DNA of 64,000 nt from Corallococcus coralloides DSM 2259 (GTDB lineage: Bacteria > Myxococcota > Myxococcia > Myxococcales > Myxococcaceae): positions 6,166,328 to 6,230,327 of the forward strand of contig NC_017030.1 in NCBI RefSeq assembly GCF_000255295.1, in the 5' to 3' direction. This document shows, one piece after another, positions 2,360-11,706 of this stretch. Under the pieces are notes generated by a model. That model saw only the letters and a list, made by a program, of their open reading frames with translations. It had not been told where the DNA came from and ran no database searches. Positions within the stretch are counted from its first letter, which is position 1, and every line of letters starts with the position of its first letter. The position numbers and the translations under genes are program-made.

Positions 2360-2695
2360 ATGGTCACCATCGGCATGAACTACGAAGTGCGTGAGGGCAA
2401 GGCGGAAGCCTTCGAGCGGAAGTTCGCGCTCGTGCTGGAGGCGATGCGCAAGCTGCCGACGCACGTGCACACGGAGCTGTTCAAGAGCGTGGGAGCGCCC
2501 GGGCGCTACCTCATCGTCTCCGAGTGGCACAGCCGCGAGGGCTTCGACGCCTTCATCGCGTCCGAGGCCTTCCACCGCGTGACGGACTGGGGCGCCAGCG
2601 CCATCCTCGCGAGCCGGCCGCGTCACGAGGTGTATGGGGAGAGGGCCTCCGGTGCCCCCATGGGCCGCTGCCCTGTCGCGCACGCGGTGCGGTGA
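2360..2695 (+). CDS. Antibiotic biosynthesis monooxygenase (ABM) domain protein
   Basis: The protein is about 100 aa with ABM-like features: YEVREGKAEAFERKF, and SEWHSREGFDAFIASEAFHRV. Confidence 0.6.
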   Translation: MVTIGMNYEVREGKAEAFERKFALVLEAMRKLPTHVHTELFKSVGAPGRYLIVSEWHSREGFDAFIASEAFHRVTDWGASAILASRPRHEVYGERASGAPMGRCPVAHAVR

Positions 2696-2706
2696 AGCGG
2701 GTGCGA

Positions 2707-3771
2707 ATGAACGCCATCCGGGTCCTGGTGGTGGACGACGCGGCCGTGGTGCGGCGCCAGGTGTCGCTGCTGCTGGGCGCGGCCCCGGGCCTGGAGGTCG
2801 TCGCCACCGCGCCCAATGGCCGCATCGCCCTGGCGAAGGTGGAGCAGTTCCAACCGGACGTCGTGCTGTTGGACCTGGAGATGCCGGAGCTGGACGGGCT
2901 GGAGACGCTGAAGCTCCTGCGCCAGCGTGACCCGGAGCTGCCCGTGGTGATGTTCAGCGCGCTCACCGAACGCGCGGGCGTGCTGACCCTGGAGGCGCTC
3001 GCGCTGGGGGCCCGCGACTACGTGACGAAGCCCACGTCCGTGGGAGGGATGAACATCACCGTGGAGGCCGTGCGGGATGAGCTGGTGCGCAAGCTCAAGG
3101 CGCTGAACGTGCGCACGCCGTCCGCTCCGCCTTCGCCGTCACCGGTGCCTCGCGAGCCCGTGGCCCGGCCGCGAATGCCCGCGCGGGTGGAGGCCATCGT
3201 CATCGGCGCGTCCACCGGCGGCCCGGGCGCGCTGGTGCGCCTGGTGTCCGCGCTCCCCGCGGACCTGCCGGTGCCGGTGCTCATCGTGCAGCACATGCCG
3301 CCCCTCTTCACCCGGCTGCTCGCGGAGCGGTTGCAGGGCGTGACACCGCTCACCGTGCGGGAAGCGGTGACGGGCGCCTCCGTGCAGGCGGGCGAGGTGT
3401 GGGTCGCCCCCGGCGACTTCCACCTGGCCGTGTGCCGGGATGCGACGGGCGTGCGGCTGCTCACACACCAGGGGCCGGCGGAGAACGCGTGCCGTCCGGC
3501 GGTGGACCTGCTCTTCCGCTCCGCGGCGGAGGTGTACGGCGCGGGGGTGCTGGCGGTGGTGCTCACCGGCATGGGCCAGGACGGGCTGCGCGGCTGCCGG
3601 CGGGTGAACGAGGCAGGCGGACAGGTGGTGGTACAGGACCAGGCCAGCTGCGTCGTCGGCAGCATGCCGGGCGCGGTGGAACAGGCGGGGCTGGCGGATG
3701 CCGTGATGCCCCTGGAGGCGCTGGCGTTGGAGCTGGCGCGGCGCGTGGATGCGCGCGGACGGAGGACCTGA
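2707..3771 (+). CDS. cheB: Chemotaxis response regulator protein-glutamate methylesterase CheB
   Basis: The N-terminal receiver matches VLVVDDAAVVR, LLDLEMPELDG and TKP. The C-terminal methylesterase matches VIGASTGGPGAL and LIVQHMPP. The start was chosen at MNAIRVLVVDD. Confidence 0.9.
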   Translation: MNAIRVLVVDDAAVVRRQVSLLLGAAPGLEVVATAPNGRIALAKVEQFQPDVVLLDLEMPELDGLETLKLLRQRDPELPVVMFSALTERAGVLTLEALALGARDYVTKPTSVGGMNITVEAVRDELVRKLKALNVRTPSAPPSPSPVPREPVARPRMPARVEAIVIGASTGGPGALVRLVSALPADLPVPVLIVQHMPPLFTRLLAERLQGVTPLTVREAVTGASVQAGEVWVAPGDFHLAVCRDATGVRLLTHQGPAENACRPAVDLLFRSAAEVYGAGVLAVVLTGMGQDGLRGCRRVNEAGGQVVVQDQASCVVGSMPGAVEQAGLADAVMPLEALALELARRVDARGRRT

Positions 3772-3773
3772 GC

Positions 3774-4664
3774 ATGTCCCTGCTTCCCGACGACTTCGCG
3801 TACCTGCGGCAGCGCGTGCTGCGCCGCTCCGGGCTCGTGCTGGAGCCCGACACGTACGCGCTGGTGGAGACGCGGCTCACGCCCCTCATGCGCGAGGAGC
3901 GGCTGCCGGACCTCTCCGCCCTGGTCGCGCGGTTGCGCTCGCAGCCAGCGGGCAGTCCGCTGCACCAGCGCCTGGCGGAAGCACTGGCCAACCACGAGAC
4001 CGCCTTCTTCCGCGACGCGCCCGTCTTCGAGGCCCTGCGCACCACGGTGCTCCCCACCCTGCTGGCGAAGCGCGTCCGCACGCGAACGCTGCGCATCTGG
4101 TGCGCGGCGTGCGCCTACGGTCAGGAGCCCTACAGCATCGCGATGACGCTGGCCGAGGCCGGGCTCCTCATCACCGGGTGGACGGTGCGCATCCTCGCCA
4201 CCGACTTCTCCTCCCGCGCCATCGTGCGCGCCTGCGAGGCCCGCTACGACGCGAAGGAGATCCACCGCGGCCTGACGCCCGAGCTGCGCCAGCGCTACTT
4301 CCACCAGGAGCGCGATGGGTGGCGATTGAGCGAACAGGTGCGCAAGCCGGTGGAGTTCCGGCCGCTCAACCTGATGGACGACTTCCCGCTCGAAGCGCCC
4401 GTGGACCTCGTCTTCCTGCGCAACGTGATGATCTACTGGGACGCGTCCACCCGGCGCGCGGTGCTCGCCCGCGTGCGGCGGATGCTCCACGCGGACGGCT
4501 ACCTGGTGCTGGGCGCCGCGGAGGCCTCGCCCCTGGGGGAGGACGGCTTCACGCGGCACCTGATTGGCCAGACGAGCTGGTACCGCCCCACGCCCGCCTC
4601 GACTGGCGCCGGCGCGCCCTTGGAGGACGCGCGGCGCGCTCCCCGCTCCGGCGCTACACCTTGA
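3774..4664 (+). CDS. cheR: Chemotaxis protein methyltransferase CheR
   Basis: CheR motifs are present: ETAFFRD, LRIWCAACAYGQEPYSIAMTL, and LRNVMIYWD. The ATG lies 2 nt after the cheB stop (TGAGCATG). Confidence 0.9.
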   Translation: MSLLPDDFAYLRQRVLRRSGLVLEPDTYALVETRLTPLMREERLPDLSALVARLRSQPAGSPLHQRLAEALANHETAFFRDAPVFEALRTTVLPTLLAKRVRTRTLRIWCAACAYGQEPYSIAMTLAEAGLLITGWTVRILATDFSSRAIVRACEARYDAKEIHRGLTPELRQRYFHQERDGWRLSEQVRKPVEFRPLNLMDDFPLEAPVDLVFLRNVMIYWDASTRRAVLARVRRMLHADGYLVLGAAEASPLGEDGFTRHLIGQTSWYRPTPASTGAGAPLEDARRAPRSGATP

Positions 4665-5574
4665 GGCGGATGGCGCCCGGCAGCAGCGTCATGGTGCAGG
4701 GCAGCCGGCCCGGCGTCTCGCCGTCCACGTCCAGGAACACGTCGCCCGTCAGCGGCTCCGCGTGGATCGTGCGGCAGCGCAGCCGCCGCGTGCCCTTCCA
4801 GGTGACGTGGTCGCCGTTGTAGACGCCCTTGGACTTGAGGACGAAGTCGGACAGGCCGTAGTTGGACCAGATGGTGACGTCGAAGAGGCCGTCGTGCGTC
4901 ACCGCCTCCGGCGCCACGAACATGCCGCTGCCGAAGTAGCGGCCGTTGGCCACGGCCACCGCGGTGACGCTCACCACCTCCGGCTCGCCGCCGTCCACCG
5001 TGAGGCGCACCTGCTGCTCCTGGTACTTGATGAGGCCCTTCACGGTGCCCCACATGAAGCTCAGGTTGCCGCCCAGCGCCTTGCTGCCCTGGTTCACCTC
5101 GCGGGCCACCACCGCGCTCACGCCGAACGAGGCGATGTTGGCGAAGAAGCGCGTGGCCGGGTTGCCGTCGTTGTCGGTGAACTCCAGCCGCCCCACGTCG
5201 AAGGGCTCGGTCTTCTCCGTGCGCAGCCGCTCCAGCGCGGACGTCAGCTCCAGGTCCCACCCGAAGGTGCGGCGGAAGTCGCCGCCCGTGCCTCGGGGCA
5301 ACAGGCCCAGCGTGGCCCGGGGGTTGATGACCTGTCCTTCGCGGAAGAAGCCGTTGGTGACCTCGTTGAGGGTGCCGTCGCCGCCCACCGCGACGATGCA
5401 CTCATAGCCATCATCGATGGCCTGCCGCGCCAGACGCGCCGCATCCATGCCGCCGCTGGTGAAGCCGTACCCGAAGTCACCGAGCACCTTGCCCACCTGC
5501 GCGGAGATCTCCACCCATCGCTTCCCCGTCTGCCCGTTGGCGCTGCGCGGGTTGACCACGAGGAACGTCTTCAT
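4654..5574 (-). CDS. Diacylglycerol kinase catalytic-domain family lipid kinase (YegS/BmrU-like)
   Basis: Motifs match the DAGK family: LVVNPRSANGQ, CIVAVGGDGTLNEV, and LGLLPRGTGGDF. Confidence 0.8.
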   Translation of the reverse strand: MKTFLVVNPRSANGQTGKRWVEISAQVGKVLGDFGYGFTSGGMDAARLARQAIDDGYECIVAVGGDGTLNEVTNGFFREGQVINPRATLGLLPRGTGGDFRRTFGWDLELTSALERLRTEKTEPFDVGRLEFTDNDGNPATRFFANIASFGVSAVVAREVNQGSKALGGNLSFMWGTVKGLIKYQEQQVRLTVDGGEPEVVSVTAVAVANGRYFGSGMFVAPEAVTHDGLFDVTIWSNYGLSDFVLKSKGVYNGDHVTWKGTRRLRCRTIHAEPLTGDVFLDVDGETPGRLPCTMTLLPGAIRLKV

Positions 5575-5730: not shown

Positions 5731-6408
5731 GTGAAAGCCCCGTCCCCCACCGAGCAGCTCACACCCCACCGGGAGGCCACGCGCGCCCTGGACTGGGCGC
5801 TGCCCTCGCTCCGGGCGGACCTGGCCGCGGCGGCGCGGCAGCCCTTCCGGGAGACAGGGGCCCAGGAGGACTTCCTGTACCGGCATGACGCACCGGCCCA
5901 TGAAGACCAGGGCCCGGCGCGGACGGAGCGCTTCGAGCGGGCCCTGGCCCGGGTGCGGCGGCTCGCGGACGCGGGCGAGCCGCTGACCTTCGCCCGGCTG
6001 GTGGAGGTCCAGTCGGAGCTCCTGGGCGGGCCCACGGGCTTCCGCACCGGGGACGCCTTCGCGTGGGGGGGCGCGCACCGCTATGCGCACGCGCCCGGCC
6101 TGGAGGCGGCCTTCCGCGACAAGGTGGAAGCGGACGCGCGGGAGGAGCGTCATCCAGTGGCGCATGCCACGCGGCTGTACCTGGACCTGTGCTTCTTCCA
6201 CCCCTTCCCGGACGGCAACGCCCGCGCGGCGCGGCTGTGGCTGGAATACATGCTGCGCCGGGGCCGGCTGCCCACGCCACCGCTGGCGCCCGTGGTGCTG
6301 TGGCCCAAGCGGCCGGGTGACGCGGTGAACTACACGCGGCTGGCAAGGCTGCTGGCCCGGACCATCGCGGGGCCGGACGCCCCGTGCCGCAACGAGGTGC
6401 CTGAATGA
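5731..6408 (+). CDS. Fic/Doc-family protein with variant Fic motif
   Basis: The motif HPFPDGNARAARL resembles the Fic consensus HPFx(D/E)GNGRxxR, but has Ala at the second Gly position. Confidence 0.8.
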   Translation: MKAPSPTEQLTPHREATRALDWALPSLRADLAAAARQPFRETGAQEDFLYRHDAPAHEDQGPARTERFERALARVRRLADAGEPLTFARLVEVQSELLGGPTGFRTGDAFAWGGAHRYAHAPGLEAAFRDKVEADAREERHPVAHATRLYLDLCFFHPFPDGNARAARLWLEYMLRRGRLPTPPLAPVVLWPKRPGDAVNYTRLARLLARTIAGPDAPCRNEVPE

Positions 6409-7070
6409 GCAGTGACGCTTCGGCTTTCACGTGGCGCCGCATCCGCGACAGCCTGGATGCCTACTCACCGCAATCGCTGGCGTCCCGGCTGCGGGAGGCC
6501 CTGGCCCCGCTGCGGACCGGAAGCATCCACACCAGCCGGCTCAAGCAGGCGCAGAACGTCGTGAAGGACCTGCTCCAGGCCGAGCTGGGGCCCTGGTACG
6601 TCGAGAGCGGCCTGCCCCTGGGCAATGAAATGCTGGGGGGCTATTGCTGGTGTCACTCGTTCTTCAACCAGAACCCGCCGCATCGGACGTGGGATGTGGA
6701 TGAGAACATCCAGCTCATGCTGGACGCGCTGGAGCGGATCCGTTCGTTCCTGTACGCGCTGGACGGCGTGTATCAGGCCTCGCGCCGTCAGCTTGAGGCG
6801 GCCGCTGACGACAAGGCTCTCCGGGCGAAGGCGCTCGCGGAAGGGCTGGTGCGGACCGTGGACCTGACGGCGGAGACGACGTCCTGCGAGGAGACCTGGT
6901 ACCAAATCGCGCAGGACGCGATGACGTGGTGCATCGAGGCGATGGGACTGCCCTTGTCGGAGGCCACGCTGGAGCAGTTGGACACCGCCTTCGTCTTCAC
7001 GTCCTGGATTGCGCCTCCCCCGGAGGCTCTCCGTGAGGCGGCGGCGCGGGTGGCGGAGGGGGCCGTATGA
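6405..7070 (+). CDS. Hypothetical protein, paralog A of a tandem pair (GGYCWCH motif family)
   Basis: It overlaps the Fic stop by ATGA. It shares a conserved core with the next gene, LGPWYxExGLxLGNExxGGYCWCHxFF, plus IQLxxDALER. Confidence 0.6.
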   Translation: MSSDASAFTWRRIRDSLDAYSPQSLASRLREALAPLRTGSIHTSRLKQAQNVVKDLLQAELGPWYVESGLPLGNEMLGGYCWCHSFFNQNPPHRTWDVDENIQLMLDALERIRSFLYALDGVYQASRRQLEAAADDKALRAKALAEGLVRTVDLTAETTSCEETWYQIAQDAMTWCIEAMGLPLSEATLEQLDTAFVFTSWIAPPPEALREAAARVAEGAV

Positions 7071-7762
7071 GCAGGTCGGCCCTGGGGCACTGGCTGCTCA
7101 TCCGCGACAGCCTGGAGGGGTATGACCCGGAGAAGCTCATCCGGATGCTGCGCGAATACCTGGCGCCGCGCGTCCCCCCGGGGACGCGCAAGCTCACGGA
7201 CGAGCAGCACGACACGATGGCGAAACACATCCAGCGGATGCTCAACCAGAACCTGGGGCCCTGGTACACGGAGACGGGGCTGTATCTGGGCAATGAGAGC
7301 TTCGGCGGCTACTGCTGGTGCCACCGTTTCTTCGGACAGAAGCCCACGCCGAACATGAGCGTGGAAGCCAACATCCAGCTCATCATCGACGCGCTGGAGC
7401 GGTCGCGCGAATGGCTGTTCAAGCTGGATGCCCACTTCCAGGCGCTGAAACGGGACCTGCCCTCCGGCCCGGACGACAATGACATCCGGATGCTGGCCCT
7501 GGCGGATGGAATCGTCACCACGATGAACCTCACCATGGAGGCCACGGGCTGCGAGGAGGCCTGGTACACCTTCGCGGACCAGGCGCTGTCCTGGATGTTC
7601 GACGCCATCGGGCTGCGTCCGGGCTATCAGGCCGGGAAGCTGATGCGGAAGCTGTTCGCCTTCGAGTCCTGGCACTCGCCTTCCGAGTGGGAGCTTCGCG
7701 CTTCATCGGAGAAGGTGGCGGCGGCCGTCGTGGAGGACGAGGGCCGCCGCCACACGCACTGA
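7067..7762 (+). CDS. Hypothetical protein, paralog B of a tandem pair (GGYCWCH motif family)
   Basis: It overlaps paralog A by ATGA and is clearly homologous to it along the full length. Examples are RDSLEGYDP, LGPWYTETGLYLGNESFGGYCWCHRFF, and EEAWY. Confidence 0.6.
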   Translation: MSRSALGHWLLIRDSLEGYDPEKLIRMLREYLAPRVPPGTRKLTDEQHDTMAKHIQRMLNQNLGPWYTETGLYLGNESFGGYCWCHRFFGQKPTPNMSVEANIQLIIDALERSREWLFKLDAHFQALKRDLPSGPDDNDIRMLALADGIVTTMNLTMEATGCEEAWYTFADQALSWMFDAIGLRPGYQAGKLMRKLFAFESWHSPSEWELRASSEKVAAAVVEDEGRRHTH

Positions 7763-7774
7763 CGCACGCCCGCC

Positions 7775-8446
7775 TCAGTGGATGGGTTTGCCGCGCGTCA
7801 TCCGGCGGGCCTGCTCGCGCGAGCCTCCCTTCACCTCGATGCGCTTGCCCTGGGGCAGCGCCTCCGGGAGCTTCAAGGAGATTTCCAGGACGCCGTTCTC
7901 GAAGTTCGCCTGGACCGACTCCGTGTCGATGCCTTCCGGAAGCGGAATGGCGCGGCGGAACAGCCCGGTGCTGCGCTCCAGGCTCCAGACGCCTTCGGCC
8001 TCCTCTTCCTCCTCCAGCTCGAAGGAGCGTTCGCCTTCGATGATGAGCAGGTCCGGCTGCAGCTCGACGTAGATGTCCTCCTGCTTCATTCCCGGCAGGT
8101 CGGCCTTCACGATGAGGTTTCCGTTTCGCTCCAGCACGTCCACCTGCGGTGACCAGAGGCCCTCGTCCAGCACGCCGCTGCCGCGGGCGGTGAGGCCCCG
8201 GCCTCCCATGCCGGTGAAGAGCTGGTCCATGTCCCCCAGCATCCGGCGCAGCAGTCCGAACGGGCTCAGGGGCGCTGCTTCCCTGCCGATGGCGGGGGCC
8301 TGGGACTCGCGGCGGCTCATGCCAGCGCCCGTCCTGGGCTCCTGTCCCTGCGAGGCGGCGCCCGGCGCGTCGGCCTGGGCGTTCTTCACGGCGGGCGAGG
8401 AGGAGGGCCCCCCCTGCGCGCCTGGGTTCCTGTTGTCGGTTGCCAT
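7775..8446 (-). CDS. Hsp20/alpha-crystallin family small heat-shock protein with long disordered N-terminus
   Basis: The alpha-crystallin domain matches DVLERNGNLIVKADLPGMKQEDI and ANFENGVLEISLKLP. The start was chosen at MATDNRN, which follows a GGAGGA ribosome-binding site. Confidence 0.8.
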   Translation of the reverse strand: MATDNRNPGAQGGPSSSPAVKNAQADAPGAASQGQEPRTGAGMSRRESQAPAIGREAAPLSPFGLLRRMLGDMDQLFTGMGGRGLTARGSGVLDEGLWSPQVDVLERNGNLIVKADLPGMKQEDIYVELQPDLLIIEGERSFELEEEEEAEGVWSLERSTGLFRRAIPLPEGIDTESVQANFENGVLEISLKLPEALPQGKRIEVKGGSREQARRMTRGKPIH

Positions 8447-8601
8447 GACGTCCTCCCCCGGTGGAGCCGGCTGGCGCCCGGCCGCCGGACCGCACCGGTC
8501 ACTCAAGCGGGGATGGAATCATCCCAACTCCAAACGTGGAGGCGCGCGGCGGGACCATCAAGGGTCCGGGGCCCCGCGGTCTGGCATTCACGGGAACCCC
8601 G

Positions 8602-10428: not shown

Positions 10429-11706
10429 TCACAACAAACGTGTCATGGAGCACCAGAGGCGCACAGCCCATCGGCCCAAGCGGCTCAGTGCGCCGTGAAT
10501 CAGTCCGTCCTCCCCGCTCTCCGCGACGCGACCGTCTCCGCGGGAATCGTCGGGTAGCGACTCGGCCTGGAGGCCCCCCTCGGGAGAGGAAGCGCCCCAA
10601 CCTGACCGACGGTCGGATGAGTCGCTCAAGGCCGAGCCCGGCACCTCCCCCTCGGTCCACACCCCGCCTGGCTCGCCAGGATTGAGACTCGGAGCGGTAG
10701 GAAACAGCGCCCCGATGGCCGTCTCCATGGAGAGCACCGCCTCCTGGGAATGGGATTCAATCCCATGCGCGCCGGAGTCCCCAGCGGCAGGAGCAAGGCG
10801 GACGAGGCACGGTTCCTCCATGTGGGGACGCACCTCAAACGCCGTCTCCTGCACGGTGAATGGCGCACGGTCGCCAAGATCCGGCTCATTGACGCCAGGA
10901 CGTGCCCCCAGTGCCGTGTCTTGCGCGGGGGGTGATACTGGGACGCCACGGCATGCCTTCTGGGAGAGCGGGGCTTCGGGTGAAGCCTGCTCCTGGGGTG
11001 CGGGGGCAAAGGCGTTCAGCACGCGCTCGTCACATGCTTTCAGTAGCGCCGGCAACTCGTGCTGAAGCGCCTGCACGTCGCGCTCGTGCAGGATCGCCAT
11101 CACGCGGAAGGCCCACTCGCGCAGCGCCTCTCCGCCCATGAGCGGCAGCAGTTGGGCTGCGCCCCCCAGGAATGCCCGCTGCAGGGACTGAACGAGGAGC
11201 ACATGCCCGGGACGCTCCGCCACCCGCGCAGCCTGCCGCAGCAACTCGAACTCCACCTGCGCGCAGGTGGCCCCCGGCTCCCAGCGCGCCGCGTCCTGGA
11301 GCTGGAAGCACGTACTTCCCAGTCGGTCCAGGTCGAGGTGCGAGGCCCTCGCGCAGCAATCGGCCAGAAGCTCCAACAGCACCTGCCGTTTGAGGCTGAA
11401 GTAGCCCTCCAGGAGCCACCGGGCGTCCGGGTTGCTCGCGTCATGCAGCGCCAGGCCCAGGTTCTCCAGCGTCAGCGACACATCCAGCGCCACCGCGCGC
11501 GTCCTGCGTCCGGGGCGCTGCACCACCAGGCCCCTCGCCGCCAGCCGCCGCAGCGCCTCACGGATGGTGCCCCGGCATACCTCATAGCGACGCGCCAGCT
11601 TCGCTTCCGAGCCGAATTGCCCGCTCGGGTGCAGCCGCCCCAGCGCGATATCGCGCTCGATTTGCGCCTCCACATAGGCCACGAGTCCTCCCCGTCCCAT
11701 CCCCAT
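10429..11706 (-). CDS. GntR-family transcriptional regulator (winged HTH N-terminus; long low-complexity C-terminal extension, 3' end uncertain)
   Basis: The N-terminus, GSEAKLARRYEVCRGTIREALRRLAARGLV, is a GntR-type HTH. A helical FCD-like middle follows. The last roughly 180 aa are Pro/Gly/Ser-rich. Confidence 0.65.
   Translation of the reverse strand: MGMGRGGLVAYVEAQIERDIALGRLHPSGQFGSEAKLARRYEVCRGTIREALRRLAARGLVVQRPGRRTRAVALDVSLTLENLGLALHDASNPDARWLLEGYFSLKRQVLLELLADCCARASHLDLDRLGSTCFQLQDAARWEPGATCAQVEFELLRQAARVAERPGHVLLVQSLQRAFLGGAAQLLPLMGGEALREWAFRVMAILHERDVQALQHELPALLKACDERVLNAFAPAPQEQASPEAPLSQKACRGVPVSPPAQDTALGARPGVNEPDLGDRAPFTVQETAFEVRPHMEEPCLVRLAPAAGDSGAHGIESHSQEAVLSMETAIGALFPTAPSLNPGEPGGVWTEGEVPGSALSDSSDRRSGWGASSPEGGLQAESLPDDSRGDGRVAESGEDGLIHGALSRLGRWAVRLWCSMTRLL

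Follow-up and report, generated by a model that had tools for sequence, protein, structure and literature searches.

A Fic gene and two overlapping partner genes

The 64,000-nucleotide stretch of the Corallococcus coralloides DSM 2259 genome that we analysed here (the window; NC_017030.1, positions 6,166,328 to 6,230,327) carries on its forward strand a gene for a Fic-domain protein followed by two tandem paralogs of a second family, which we refer to as the partner family. The Fic gene (5731-6408) starts with GTG and encodes a protein of 225 amino acids (aa), a predicted nucleotidyl (adenosine monophosphate, AMP) transferase belonging to the GN[A/G/S]R clade described below. It is followed by parA (6405-7070, 221 aa), an open reading frame 100% identical to COCOR_04891 of the same strain, and by parB (7067-7762, 231 aa). 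Each paralog overlaps the preceding gene by the tetranucleotide ATGA, at 6405-6408 and at 7067-7070; this can be read directly in the sequence and confirms the tandem arrangement described in the first-pass annotation of this DNA. Fic, parA and parB form a single operon, and no second copy was found in the window. The two paralogs share 44% identity across 216 residues (E=1e-60). Compared with the Corallococcus orthologs, the ratio of non-synonymous to synonymous substitution rates (dN/dS) is 0.22-0.35 for Fic, 0.25-0.58 for parA and 0.14-0.42 for parB, and each of the three genes is under purifying selection among Corallococcus genomes.

The product of the first gene matches the Pfam Fic family PF02661 (E=7e-9; 36.9 bits, cut-off 24), and its matches among PDB sequences are NmFic and FICD (the latter with E=2e-9 in a profile search). 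Its active-site motif, HPFPDGNARAAR, lies at 6199-6234 (aa 157-168) and, read directly, has Ala164 (codon GCC) at the position of the second Gly of the consensus. The strict HxFx(D/E)GNGRxxR pattern is missed at this one position only, with all functional side chains kept. By analogy with known Fic structures, the segment FRTGDAFAWGGAHRY (6040-6084, aa 104-118) is the predicted target-docking flap; R105, A109 and Y118 are invariant there in alignments of the clade, and the equivalent segment forms a beta-hairpin (E310-312 and E317-319) in the model of a natural fusion protein presented below. Closer to the N-terminus, T42-G-A-Q-E46-D47 (5854-5871) is a candidate class-II-type inhibitory-helix motif, fitting (S/T)xxxE(G/N) save for its last residue. 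It occurs only in the Myxococcaceae/Planctomycetota subclade, while the fusions and the other subclades carry D-G-H-x-x-F instead. Two alignments disagree on the register of T42xxxE46 relative to SoFic, and we rejected its placement on the inhibitory Glu of SoFic or FICD because the alignments end short of the motif or conflict.

Both paralogs contain the stretches LGPWYxExGLxLGNExxGGYCWCHxFF and IQLxxDALER, as reported at first pass; the third motif claimed to be common to the two, EEAWY, is found in parB alone, with EETWY in parA.

The partner family and its link to Fic

Neither parA nor parB matched any family in Pfam, NCBIfam, PADLOC or PHROGs, and the partner family gave no significant match to PDB sequences or PDB folds; the best hit of the family profile against PDB sequences (E 0.028) fell on designed helical proteins. 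A Pfam scan of 74 diverse members at E<=0.1 revealed no recurrent family, with a TetR_C signal in 2 of the 74, and our literature searches found no description of the family. The first-pass annotation had been unable to place these paralogs, and our family, PDB sequence and PDB fold searches bear this out. By Pfam, NCBIfam, PADLOC, PHROGs, PDB and the searchable literature, parA and parB represent a previously undescribed, all-helical family of about 220 aa. The AlphaFold2 (AF2) model of parA is all-alpha, with a predicted local distance difference test score (pLDDT) of 86 and a predicted template modelling score (pTM) of 0.86. While a word-indexed search retrieved 24 close relatives, all from Myxococcaceae, scanning 1.84 billion cluster representatives with a full HMMER profile search returned 217 at E<=1e-3, 70 of them at E<=1e-10.

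In two fold searches with the partner model, Fido-fold chains (Doc, Bep8, VbhT, BepC) recurred at the top both times, always below significance. Such a recurrence might be read as the trace of an extremely diverged, catalytically dead Fido fold, that is, a pseudo-Fic heterodimerising with the active Fic protein. We hold this to be highly improbable, as every score stays below significance, hhalign gives a Prob of only 0.2 between the partner and Fic profiles, and the order of secondary structure elements in the partner has no obvious match to the Fic core. On the same hhalign value, we rejected homology between partner and Fic at the sequence level. The only alignment that hhalign gave between the two profiles, a non-significant one, joins a [S/D]-W-x-x-P motif common to the Fic N-terminus (D21-W22-A-L-P25, with P25 invariant; 5791-5805) and the partner core (S200-W201-x-x-P204; 6996-7016).

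Conservation within the family was counted over 164 members aligned to the family hidden Markov model (HMM). A universal core, T-x-x-x-[D/E]-[A/S]-W-Y … F-x-S-W-x-x-P, occupies the C-terminal half. Its first part comprises T159 (128/161), [D/E]163 (146/162), W165 (159/162) and Y166 (140/162), followed by W175 (145/162) and G181 (133/161), and its second part F198 (151/161), S200 (155/161), W201 (153/161) and P204 (148/159); G62 and W64 are conserved further upstream. The two core motifs read TSCEETWY (6879-6902, aa 159-166) and FTSWIAP (6996-7016, aa 198-204) in parA and TGCEEAWY (7544-7567, aa 160-167) and FESWHSP (7661-7681, aa 199-205) in parB. In the AF2 models of parA and of the fusion protein, the universal core motifs fall in inter-helix loops.

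The second conserved feature is a Cys/His cluster, GGYCWCHS in parA (6636-6659, aa 78-85) and GGYCWCHR in parB (7304-7327, aa 80-87). With parA numbering, C81 is present in 127/144 members and H84 in 121/149. The number of Cys among the 148 members covering the region is exactly two in 117, three in 10 and zero in 21, and never one; at least two Cys together with the His occur in 118 members, and the His is also lost in 17 of the 21 members devoid of Cys. Two flavours of the cluster exist, the Corallococcus one being W-C-W-C-H-S and the other W-C-C-x-x-H-S. The cluster is absent in about 14% of the members, for example in the Hyalangium ortholog, which reads GGYVSSYFF and is still linked to Fic. 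The GGYCWCH sequence, presented at first pass as strictly conserved, is therefore the Corallococcus/Pyxidicoccus flavour of a more variable element. Conversely, the view that C-W-C-H is not conserved, which we had drawn from the Hyalangium ortholog, was overturned by the analyses of 74 and 164 members, in which about 86% carry the cluster.

Since the Cys/His pattern is all-or-none, these residues may act jointly as metal ligands or as a disulfide pair. The pattern across the family fits a metal or disulfide unit and is in line with the metal or redox chemistry suggested at first pass. Cys-less members persist and stay linked to Fic, which shows that the cluster is accessory and is not what the domain essentially does. 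The same observation bears on the idea that the partner is itself an enzyme, with a Cys/His/Asp triad or a metal site, which would undo or complement the modification made by Fic, the two forming a writer-eraser pair of the DarT/DarG kind. The loops of the partner do hold conserved polar residues (C81, H84, S85, T159, D163, Y166 and S200), and antagonistic enzymes are paired or fused elsewhere. However, about 14% of the members, including the Hyalangium ortholog, lack the Cys and usually the His and yet retain the other conserved residues and remain linked to Fic, which argues against Cys/His catalysis, and we saw no structural match to hydrolase folds. We therefore give little credence to an eraser enzyme.

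The association with Fic held wherever the genomic context could be read. The Fic gene lies directly upstream in 11/11 genome loci picked out by a partner-only peptide pattern, all of which share the same layout: a lipid-kinase gene (-), Fic, one or more partners, an Hsp20 gene (-) and a PhzF gene (-). With a different partner-only pattern, Fic was directly downstream or fused in 3/3 metagenome loci, and contig look-ups that started from partner genes found an adjacent, usually overlapping, Fic gene in 4/4 readable cases (P0159, P0093, P0088, P0118). Starting instead from distant Fic homologs, the partner was adjacent in 5/5 readable cases (P0059, P0058, P0052, P0067, P0062), the partners being identified by hhalign or HMM with E values of 1e-10 to 1e-60. 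In total, among loci with readable context, Fic adjoins the partner in 18/18 partner-first and 5/5 Fic-first cases; two loci whose contigs end at the gene, P0090 (L020) and P0064 (L024), were left out of these counts. The order of the two genes is not fixed. Fic precedes the partner in Myxococcaceae and in the loci L021 and L022, and the partner precedes Fic in L012, L014, L016, L018, L019, L023, L025 and the P0093 contig.

The two proteins also occur as one. In about 25 of the best 150 of the 217 family representatives, one polypeptide of 400-550 aa holds both, the partner at the N-terminus and a Fic domain of the same clade at the C-terminus. Pfam Fic was found in 22/30 long family members, and the Fic motif in 25 fused members. 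Furthermore, the partner profile aligns with the N-terminus of one such fusion (P0075) with an hhalign Prob of 97.8 (E=1.1e-12). The AF2 model of another fusion, a 419-aa protein from a Myxococcota metagenome-assembled genome (MAG) annotated as 'Fic family protein' (P0204), has a pLDDT of 94.5 and a pTM of 0.85. For a pair of domains with some 200 residues apiece this is a high pTM, which implies one compact unit with a fixed inter-domain arrangement. The Fic half of the fusion is structurally closest to class II Fic proteins.

The adjacency in every readable locus and the natural fusions agree with the first-pass proposal that the paralogs are functionally tied to the Fic protein, and they reveal a far closer bond than could be seen at first pass: the partner is obligate, and it is almost certain that the two operate as a unit. 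In the other genomes examined, the family was not found to be widespread away from Fic neighbours. Outside Myxococcaceae the neighbouring genes vary by locus and, because none of them is conserved there, we regard the Fic-partner pair as a self-contained module.

Tightly overlapping genes, two or three in number, are also what one would expect of a FicTA-type toxin-antitoxin system, in which Fic would be a growth-arresting toxin, the partner a proteic antitoxin whose acidic residue inhibits it in trans, and the two paralogs redundant antitoxins. Precedents exist in VbhA/VbhT, EcFicA/T and Fic-1/AntF (PMC3667792, PMC13327609), the conserved T-x-x-x-[D/E] of the partner is similar to (S/T)xxxE(G/N), and other toxin-antitoxin pairs lie near some of the modules (HEPN/MNT in L021, HipA in L012). 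On the other hand, the partner equals the presumed toxin in size and is confidently folded, the gene order is variable and fusion is frequent, and in the models the acidic motif sits in a loop and not at the N-terminus of a helix. Moreover, Corallococcus, Pyxidicoccus and Hyalangium share a stable chromosomal synteny of lipid kinase, Fic, partner and Hsp20 that shows no signs of mobile elements, and the partner has no match to PADLOC or to toxin-antitoxin families. Considering both sides, we find a toxin-antitoxin system unlikely. An origin from a phage or a defence island was also rejected: the partner has no PADLOC or PHROGs match, the chromosomal synteny is stable, and a search of viral contigs found no relatives of the partner.

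The two paralogs of the window are not equivalent. Comparison among orthologs shows that parB, which has the lower dN/dS, is the conserved partner and parA a faster-evolving copy that has been repeatedly lost. By tblastn of the 11 genome loci, Pyxidicoccus fallax (L011), C. praedator (L010) and Corallococcus sp. RDP092CA (L009) have a parB ortholog as their sole partner, and the one partner of Hyalangium is likewise a parB ortholog. A neighbour-joining tree, computed without support values, also places parB with the partners from Pyxidicoccus and Hyalangium. In C. coralloides KYC2213 (L006:5001-5423) and strain AS-1-6 (P0020), parA carries an in-frame deletion of about 70 codons that removes the whole C-terminal core. 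In RDP092CA, the junction between Fic and parB (L009:4957-4980) retains the first bases of parA and its last ~20 nucleotides, and these remnants of both ends show that parA was lost from this strain by a secondary, near-complete deletion.

Some family members are larger than parA and parB. Four partner-family proteins of about 510 aa (P0118, P0119, P0129, P0138) have an extra C-terminal region of about 300 aa without Pfam match; the only one on a readable contig, P0118 (529 aa, L021:424-2013), is encoded immediately downstream of, and overlapping with, a GNAR Fic gene. The N-terminal extension of P0112, labelled by one source as a TIGR02996-family protein, reads 'LVYADWLEERGED', and the extensions of P0120, P0122 and the protein at L025:1678-2514 start similarly with 'ERLRELERRWR...'.

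Several neighbouring genes deserve mention. In the window, a DAGK_cat/YegS_C lipid-kinase-like gene (4654-5574, -) lies divergently upstream of Fic. It holds this position in Corallococcus, Pyxidicoccus and Hyalangium (L001-L011, L015) but not beyond Myxococcaceae, and it may be functionally linked to the Fic module. Convergent on parB is an Hsp20/alpha-crystallin gene (7775-8506, -), syntenic with the module in Corallococcus genomes, whose product has an unusually long (~120 aa), low-complexity N-terminal extension rich in Pro, Gly and Ala. Further upstream, genes for CheB (response regulator and methylesterase) and a CheR methyltransferase (2524-4664, +) presumably belong to one of the many myxobacterial chemosensory clusters and appear unrelated to the module. 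A GntR-family regulator gene (10429-11706, -) encodes a C-terminal region of about 350 aa without Pfam match. In the Myxococcota MAG that encodes the modelled fusion, a pair of HTH/Peptidase_M78 and DUF3368 genes (L026:7278-8817) adjoins the fusion gene, and a gene for SelO (Pfam PF02696; L026:12498-13260) is found about 5 kb downstream; SelO is another family of AMPylating enzymes. A HEPN/MNT pair near the L021 module and HipA near L012 complete the picture, with no neighbour conserved across the loci.

The GNAR motif and the predicted Fic activity

A search of 5.8 billion proteins retrieved 54 homologs of the Fic protein, from Corallococcus, Pyxidicoccus, Hyalangium, other Myxococcota, Planctomycetota MAGs and metagenome sequences, and nearly all of them have GNAR. 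Across the homolog alignments (A2, A5), no variation is seen at H, P, F, D, G, N, R and R of the motif, and its Ala is near-invariant. A Gly takes its place in P0073, P0145, P0198 and the Fic protein of L022, and a Ser in P0178, all with the same gene partner, and the 25 fusions divide into 21 with GNAR, 3 with GNGR and 1 with GNSR. As judged from these alignments, GNAR is a signature of the clade. The substitution of Ala for the second Gly, pointed out by the first-pass annotation, is thus real, and its near-invariance in 54 homologs rules out a sequencing artefact.

The meaning given to this substitution at first pass, a redirection of the Fic chemistry as in Doc or AnkX, is not supported. 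In Fic proteins, the alpha- and beta-phosphates of the nucleotide are held by four backbone amides of an anion nest at the start of helix alpha-5, and the side chains that matter are the His, the D/E, the Asn, R(1) and R(2) (PMC3667792). The residue at the second-Gly position supplies a backbone amide to this phosphate nest and no side chain (PMC3667792). Because a small residue occupies a backbone-donor position and the functional side chains are retained, there is no reason to expect a switch in chemistry. An activity of the Doc (kinase) or AnkX (phosphocholine transferase) type might still be argued for from the fact that the same position is a Lys in Doc, HPFx(D/E)GN(G/K)R, and that GNAR falls outside the five motif groups described in a survey of Fic/Doc motifs (PMC4454073). 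Ala is, however, small; Gly or Ser stands there in close relatives that have the same partner, so that the three residues interchange within a single partner-linked clade; and both motif Arg are kept along with the Asp, the Asn and every other catalytic residue. A redirected chemistry therefore seems to us very unlikely indeed.

Being absent from the five published motif groups, the GNAR variant is unusual; it is probably also benign. As the Fic active site is intact, the enzyme would most probably use a nucleotide triphosphate as donor and attach AMP, or another nucleoside monophosphate, to a hydroxyl side chain in a target. In this light, GNAR is to be seen as a normal variant of the clade and not as the sign of a new chemistry.

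A proposed dedicated Fic subunit and its counterparts in known systems

Altogether, we consider it reasonably probable that the Fic proteins of this distinct, class-II-like clade work with an obligate partner that acts as a stable subunit, preferably in a regulatory role. In such a model, the partner would bind the Fic domain and would not be a free-standing enzyme; it would hold the Fic activity in check or switch it. Control may be exerted by the loop-borne, near-invariant acidic T-x-x-x-[D/E]-[A/S]-W-Y motif together with the F-x-S-W-x-x-P loop, the two forming a conserved face, and in most members, though not all, it could be tuned by the Cys2-His cluster as an accessory element that binds metal or responds to redox conditions. 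parA would be a redundant, decaying duplicate of parB.

We favour regulation for two reasons. First, Fic enzymes are generally under the restraint of an element that comes in trans or in cis (PMC3667792), and a partner-bound Fic may reverse its direction and become a deAMPylase (PMC13327609; FICD, PMC6826200). Control by a partner also has experimental precedents in the class I antitoxins (PMC3667792) and in the Fic-1-AntF complex (PMC13327609). Second, T-x-x-x-[D/E]-[A/S]-W-Y, of all features of the partner the best conserved, resembles the inhibitory motif (S/T)xxxE(G/N).

Several points weigh against this proposal. In the models, T-x-x-x-[D/E] lies in an inter-helix loop, whereas the canonical inhibitory helix carries its motif in the first turn; within the partner motif, Asp is commoner than Glu, and the next residue is A/S and not G/N. 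The Fic protein has its own T42xxxE46, a possible in-cis inhibitor that would make an inhibitory partner partly redundant. Finally, the size (220 aa) and fold of the partner, its frequent fusion and the Myxococcaceae synteny fit an adaptor almost equally well.

Such an adaptor would recruit substrates or specify targets rather than regulate the enzyme. Many Fic enzymes bear such accessory domains, for instance the TPR of FICD, the ankyrin repeats of AnkX and the wHTH of SoFic. The partner, though, has no known binding domain at significant sequence or fold scores, the TetR_C signal being confined to two members, and it is not obvious why an adaptor would need an acidic residue that hardly varies, or a Cys2His unit kept all-or-none. 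We thus see the adaptor as possible, if somewhat doubtful, and prefer a regulatory subunit.

A more specific version of the regulatory subunit, which we put forward only tentatively, is that the partner represents a fourth mode of Fic control: a dedicated ~220-aa sensor that would clamp a class-II-like core and, responding to redox or metal status through its Cys2-His metal site or disulfide, would turn the enzyme on and off or shift it from AMPylation to de-AMPylation and back. About 90% of those Fic proteins that carry a canonical motif fall into three classes, according to the origin of a single inhibitory helix (PMC3667792). Here, a whole Fic clade is tied to a new and much larger partner domain, either in trans or fused. 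If the sensor existed as proposed, it would give soil-dwelling Myxococcota and Planctomycetota a protein-modification switch gated by stress. The co-conserved Cys/His unit is a concrete candidate for the signal-dependent control of bacterial Fic enzymes, in which the relief of inhibition is mostly unknown. Likewise, an undescribed family of some 217 clusters gains a clear functional anchor, and the natural fusions, together with a confident model, ease co-expression, mutagenesis and structural work.

Among known systems, the class II Fic proteins (SoFic SO_4266, BT_2513, FICD/HYPE and M. marinum Fic) are the closest in structure, and the extra N-terminal helices that they have before helix alpha-1 are also present in this Fic protein. 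They differ in having the second Gly, where this clade has Ala and rarely Gly or Ser, and in their (S/T)xxxE(G/N) motif, which is not conserved across this clade and is represented by T42xxxE46-D in one subclade only. In addition, the known class II proteins lack the helical domain of about 220 aa that is always beside or fused to Fic in this clade. The protein is therefore class-II-like in structure without cleanly satisfying the motif-based definitions of either class I or class II.

The class I FicTA systems (VbhA/VbhT, EcFicA/EcFicT and Fic-1/AntF) share with this locus a Fic gene with a tightly coupled partner gene, and their acidic inhibitory motif finds a resembling motif in the partner. 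Known class I antitoxins are small, single-helix proteins of about 60 aa. No sequence similarity links them to this partner, which is multi-helical and bears a Cys2His cluster. Class I antitoxin genes lie immediately upstream of the Fic gene (PMC3667792), whereas the partners here are 221-231 aa in length and encoded downstream, and elsewhere they occur in either order or fused, which departs from the small upstream antitoxin that defines the class.

Doc/Phd of P1 and AnkX are likewise members of the Fido superfamily with a substitution in the GNGR loop, at the very same position (Lys) in Doc (PMC4454073). They deviate at further positions of the motif, including the loss of the last Arg (PMC4454073), while this Fic protein keeps the full set.

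For the partner itself, an analogy only may be drawn with the zinc-binding anti-sigma (ZAS) factors, with no homology detected. ZAS factors such as RsrA are all-helical, hold an effector protein and use a Cys/His metal or redox switch. Their motif is HxxxCxxC, compared with WCWCH or WCCxxH here, and they bind a sigma factor, whereas the companion of this partner is a Fic enzyme and its metal binding is putative. A Fic protein with a dedicated control or adaptor module is a known theme; what is new, as judged by the family databases, the PDB and the literature that could be searched, is the module itself, its Cys2His unit and the strict, clade-specific coupling between the two.

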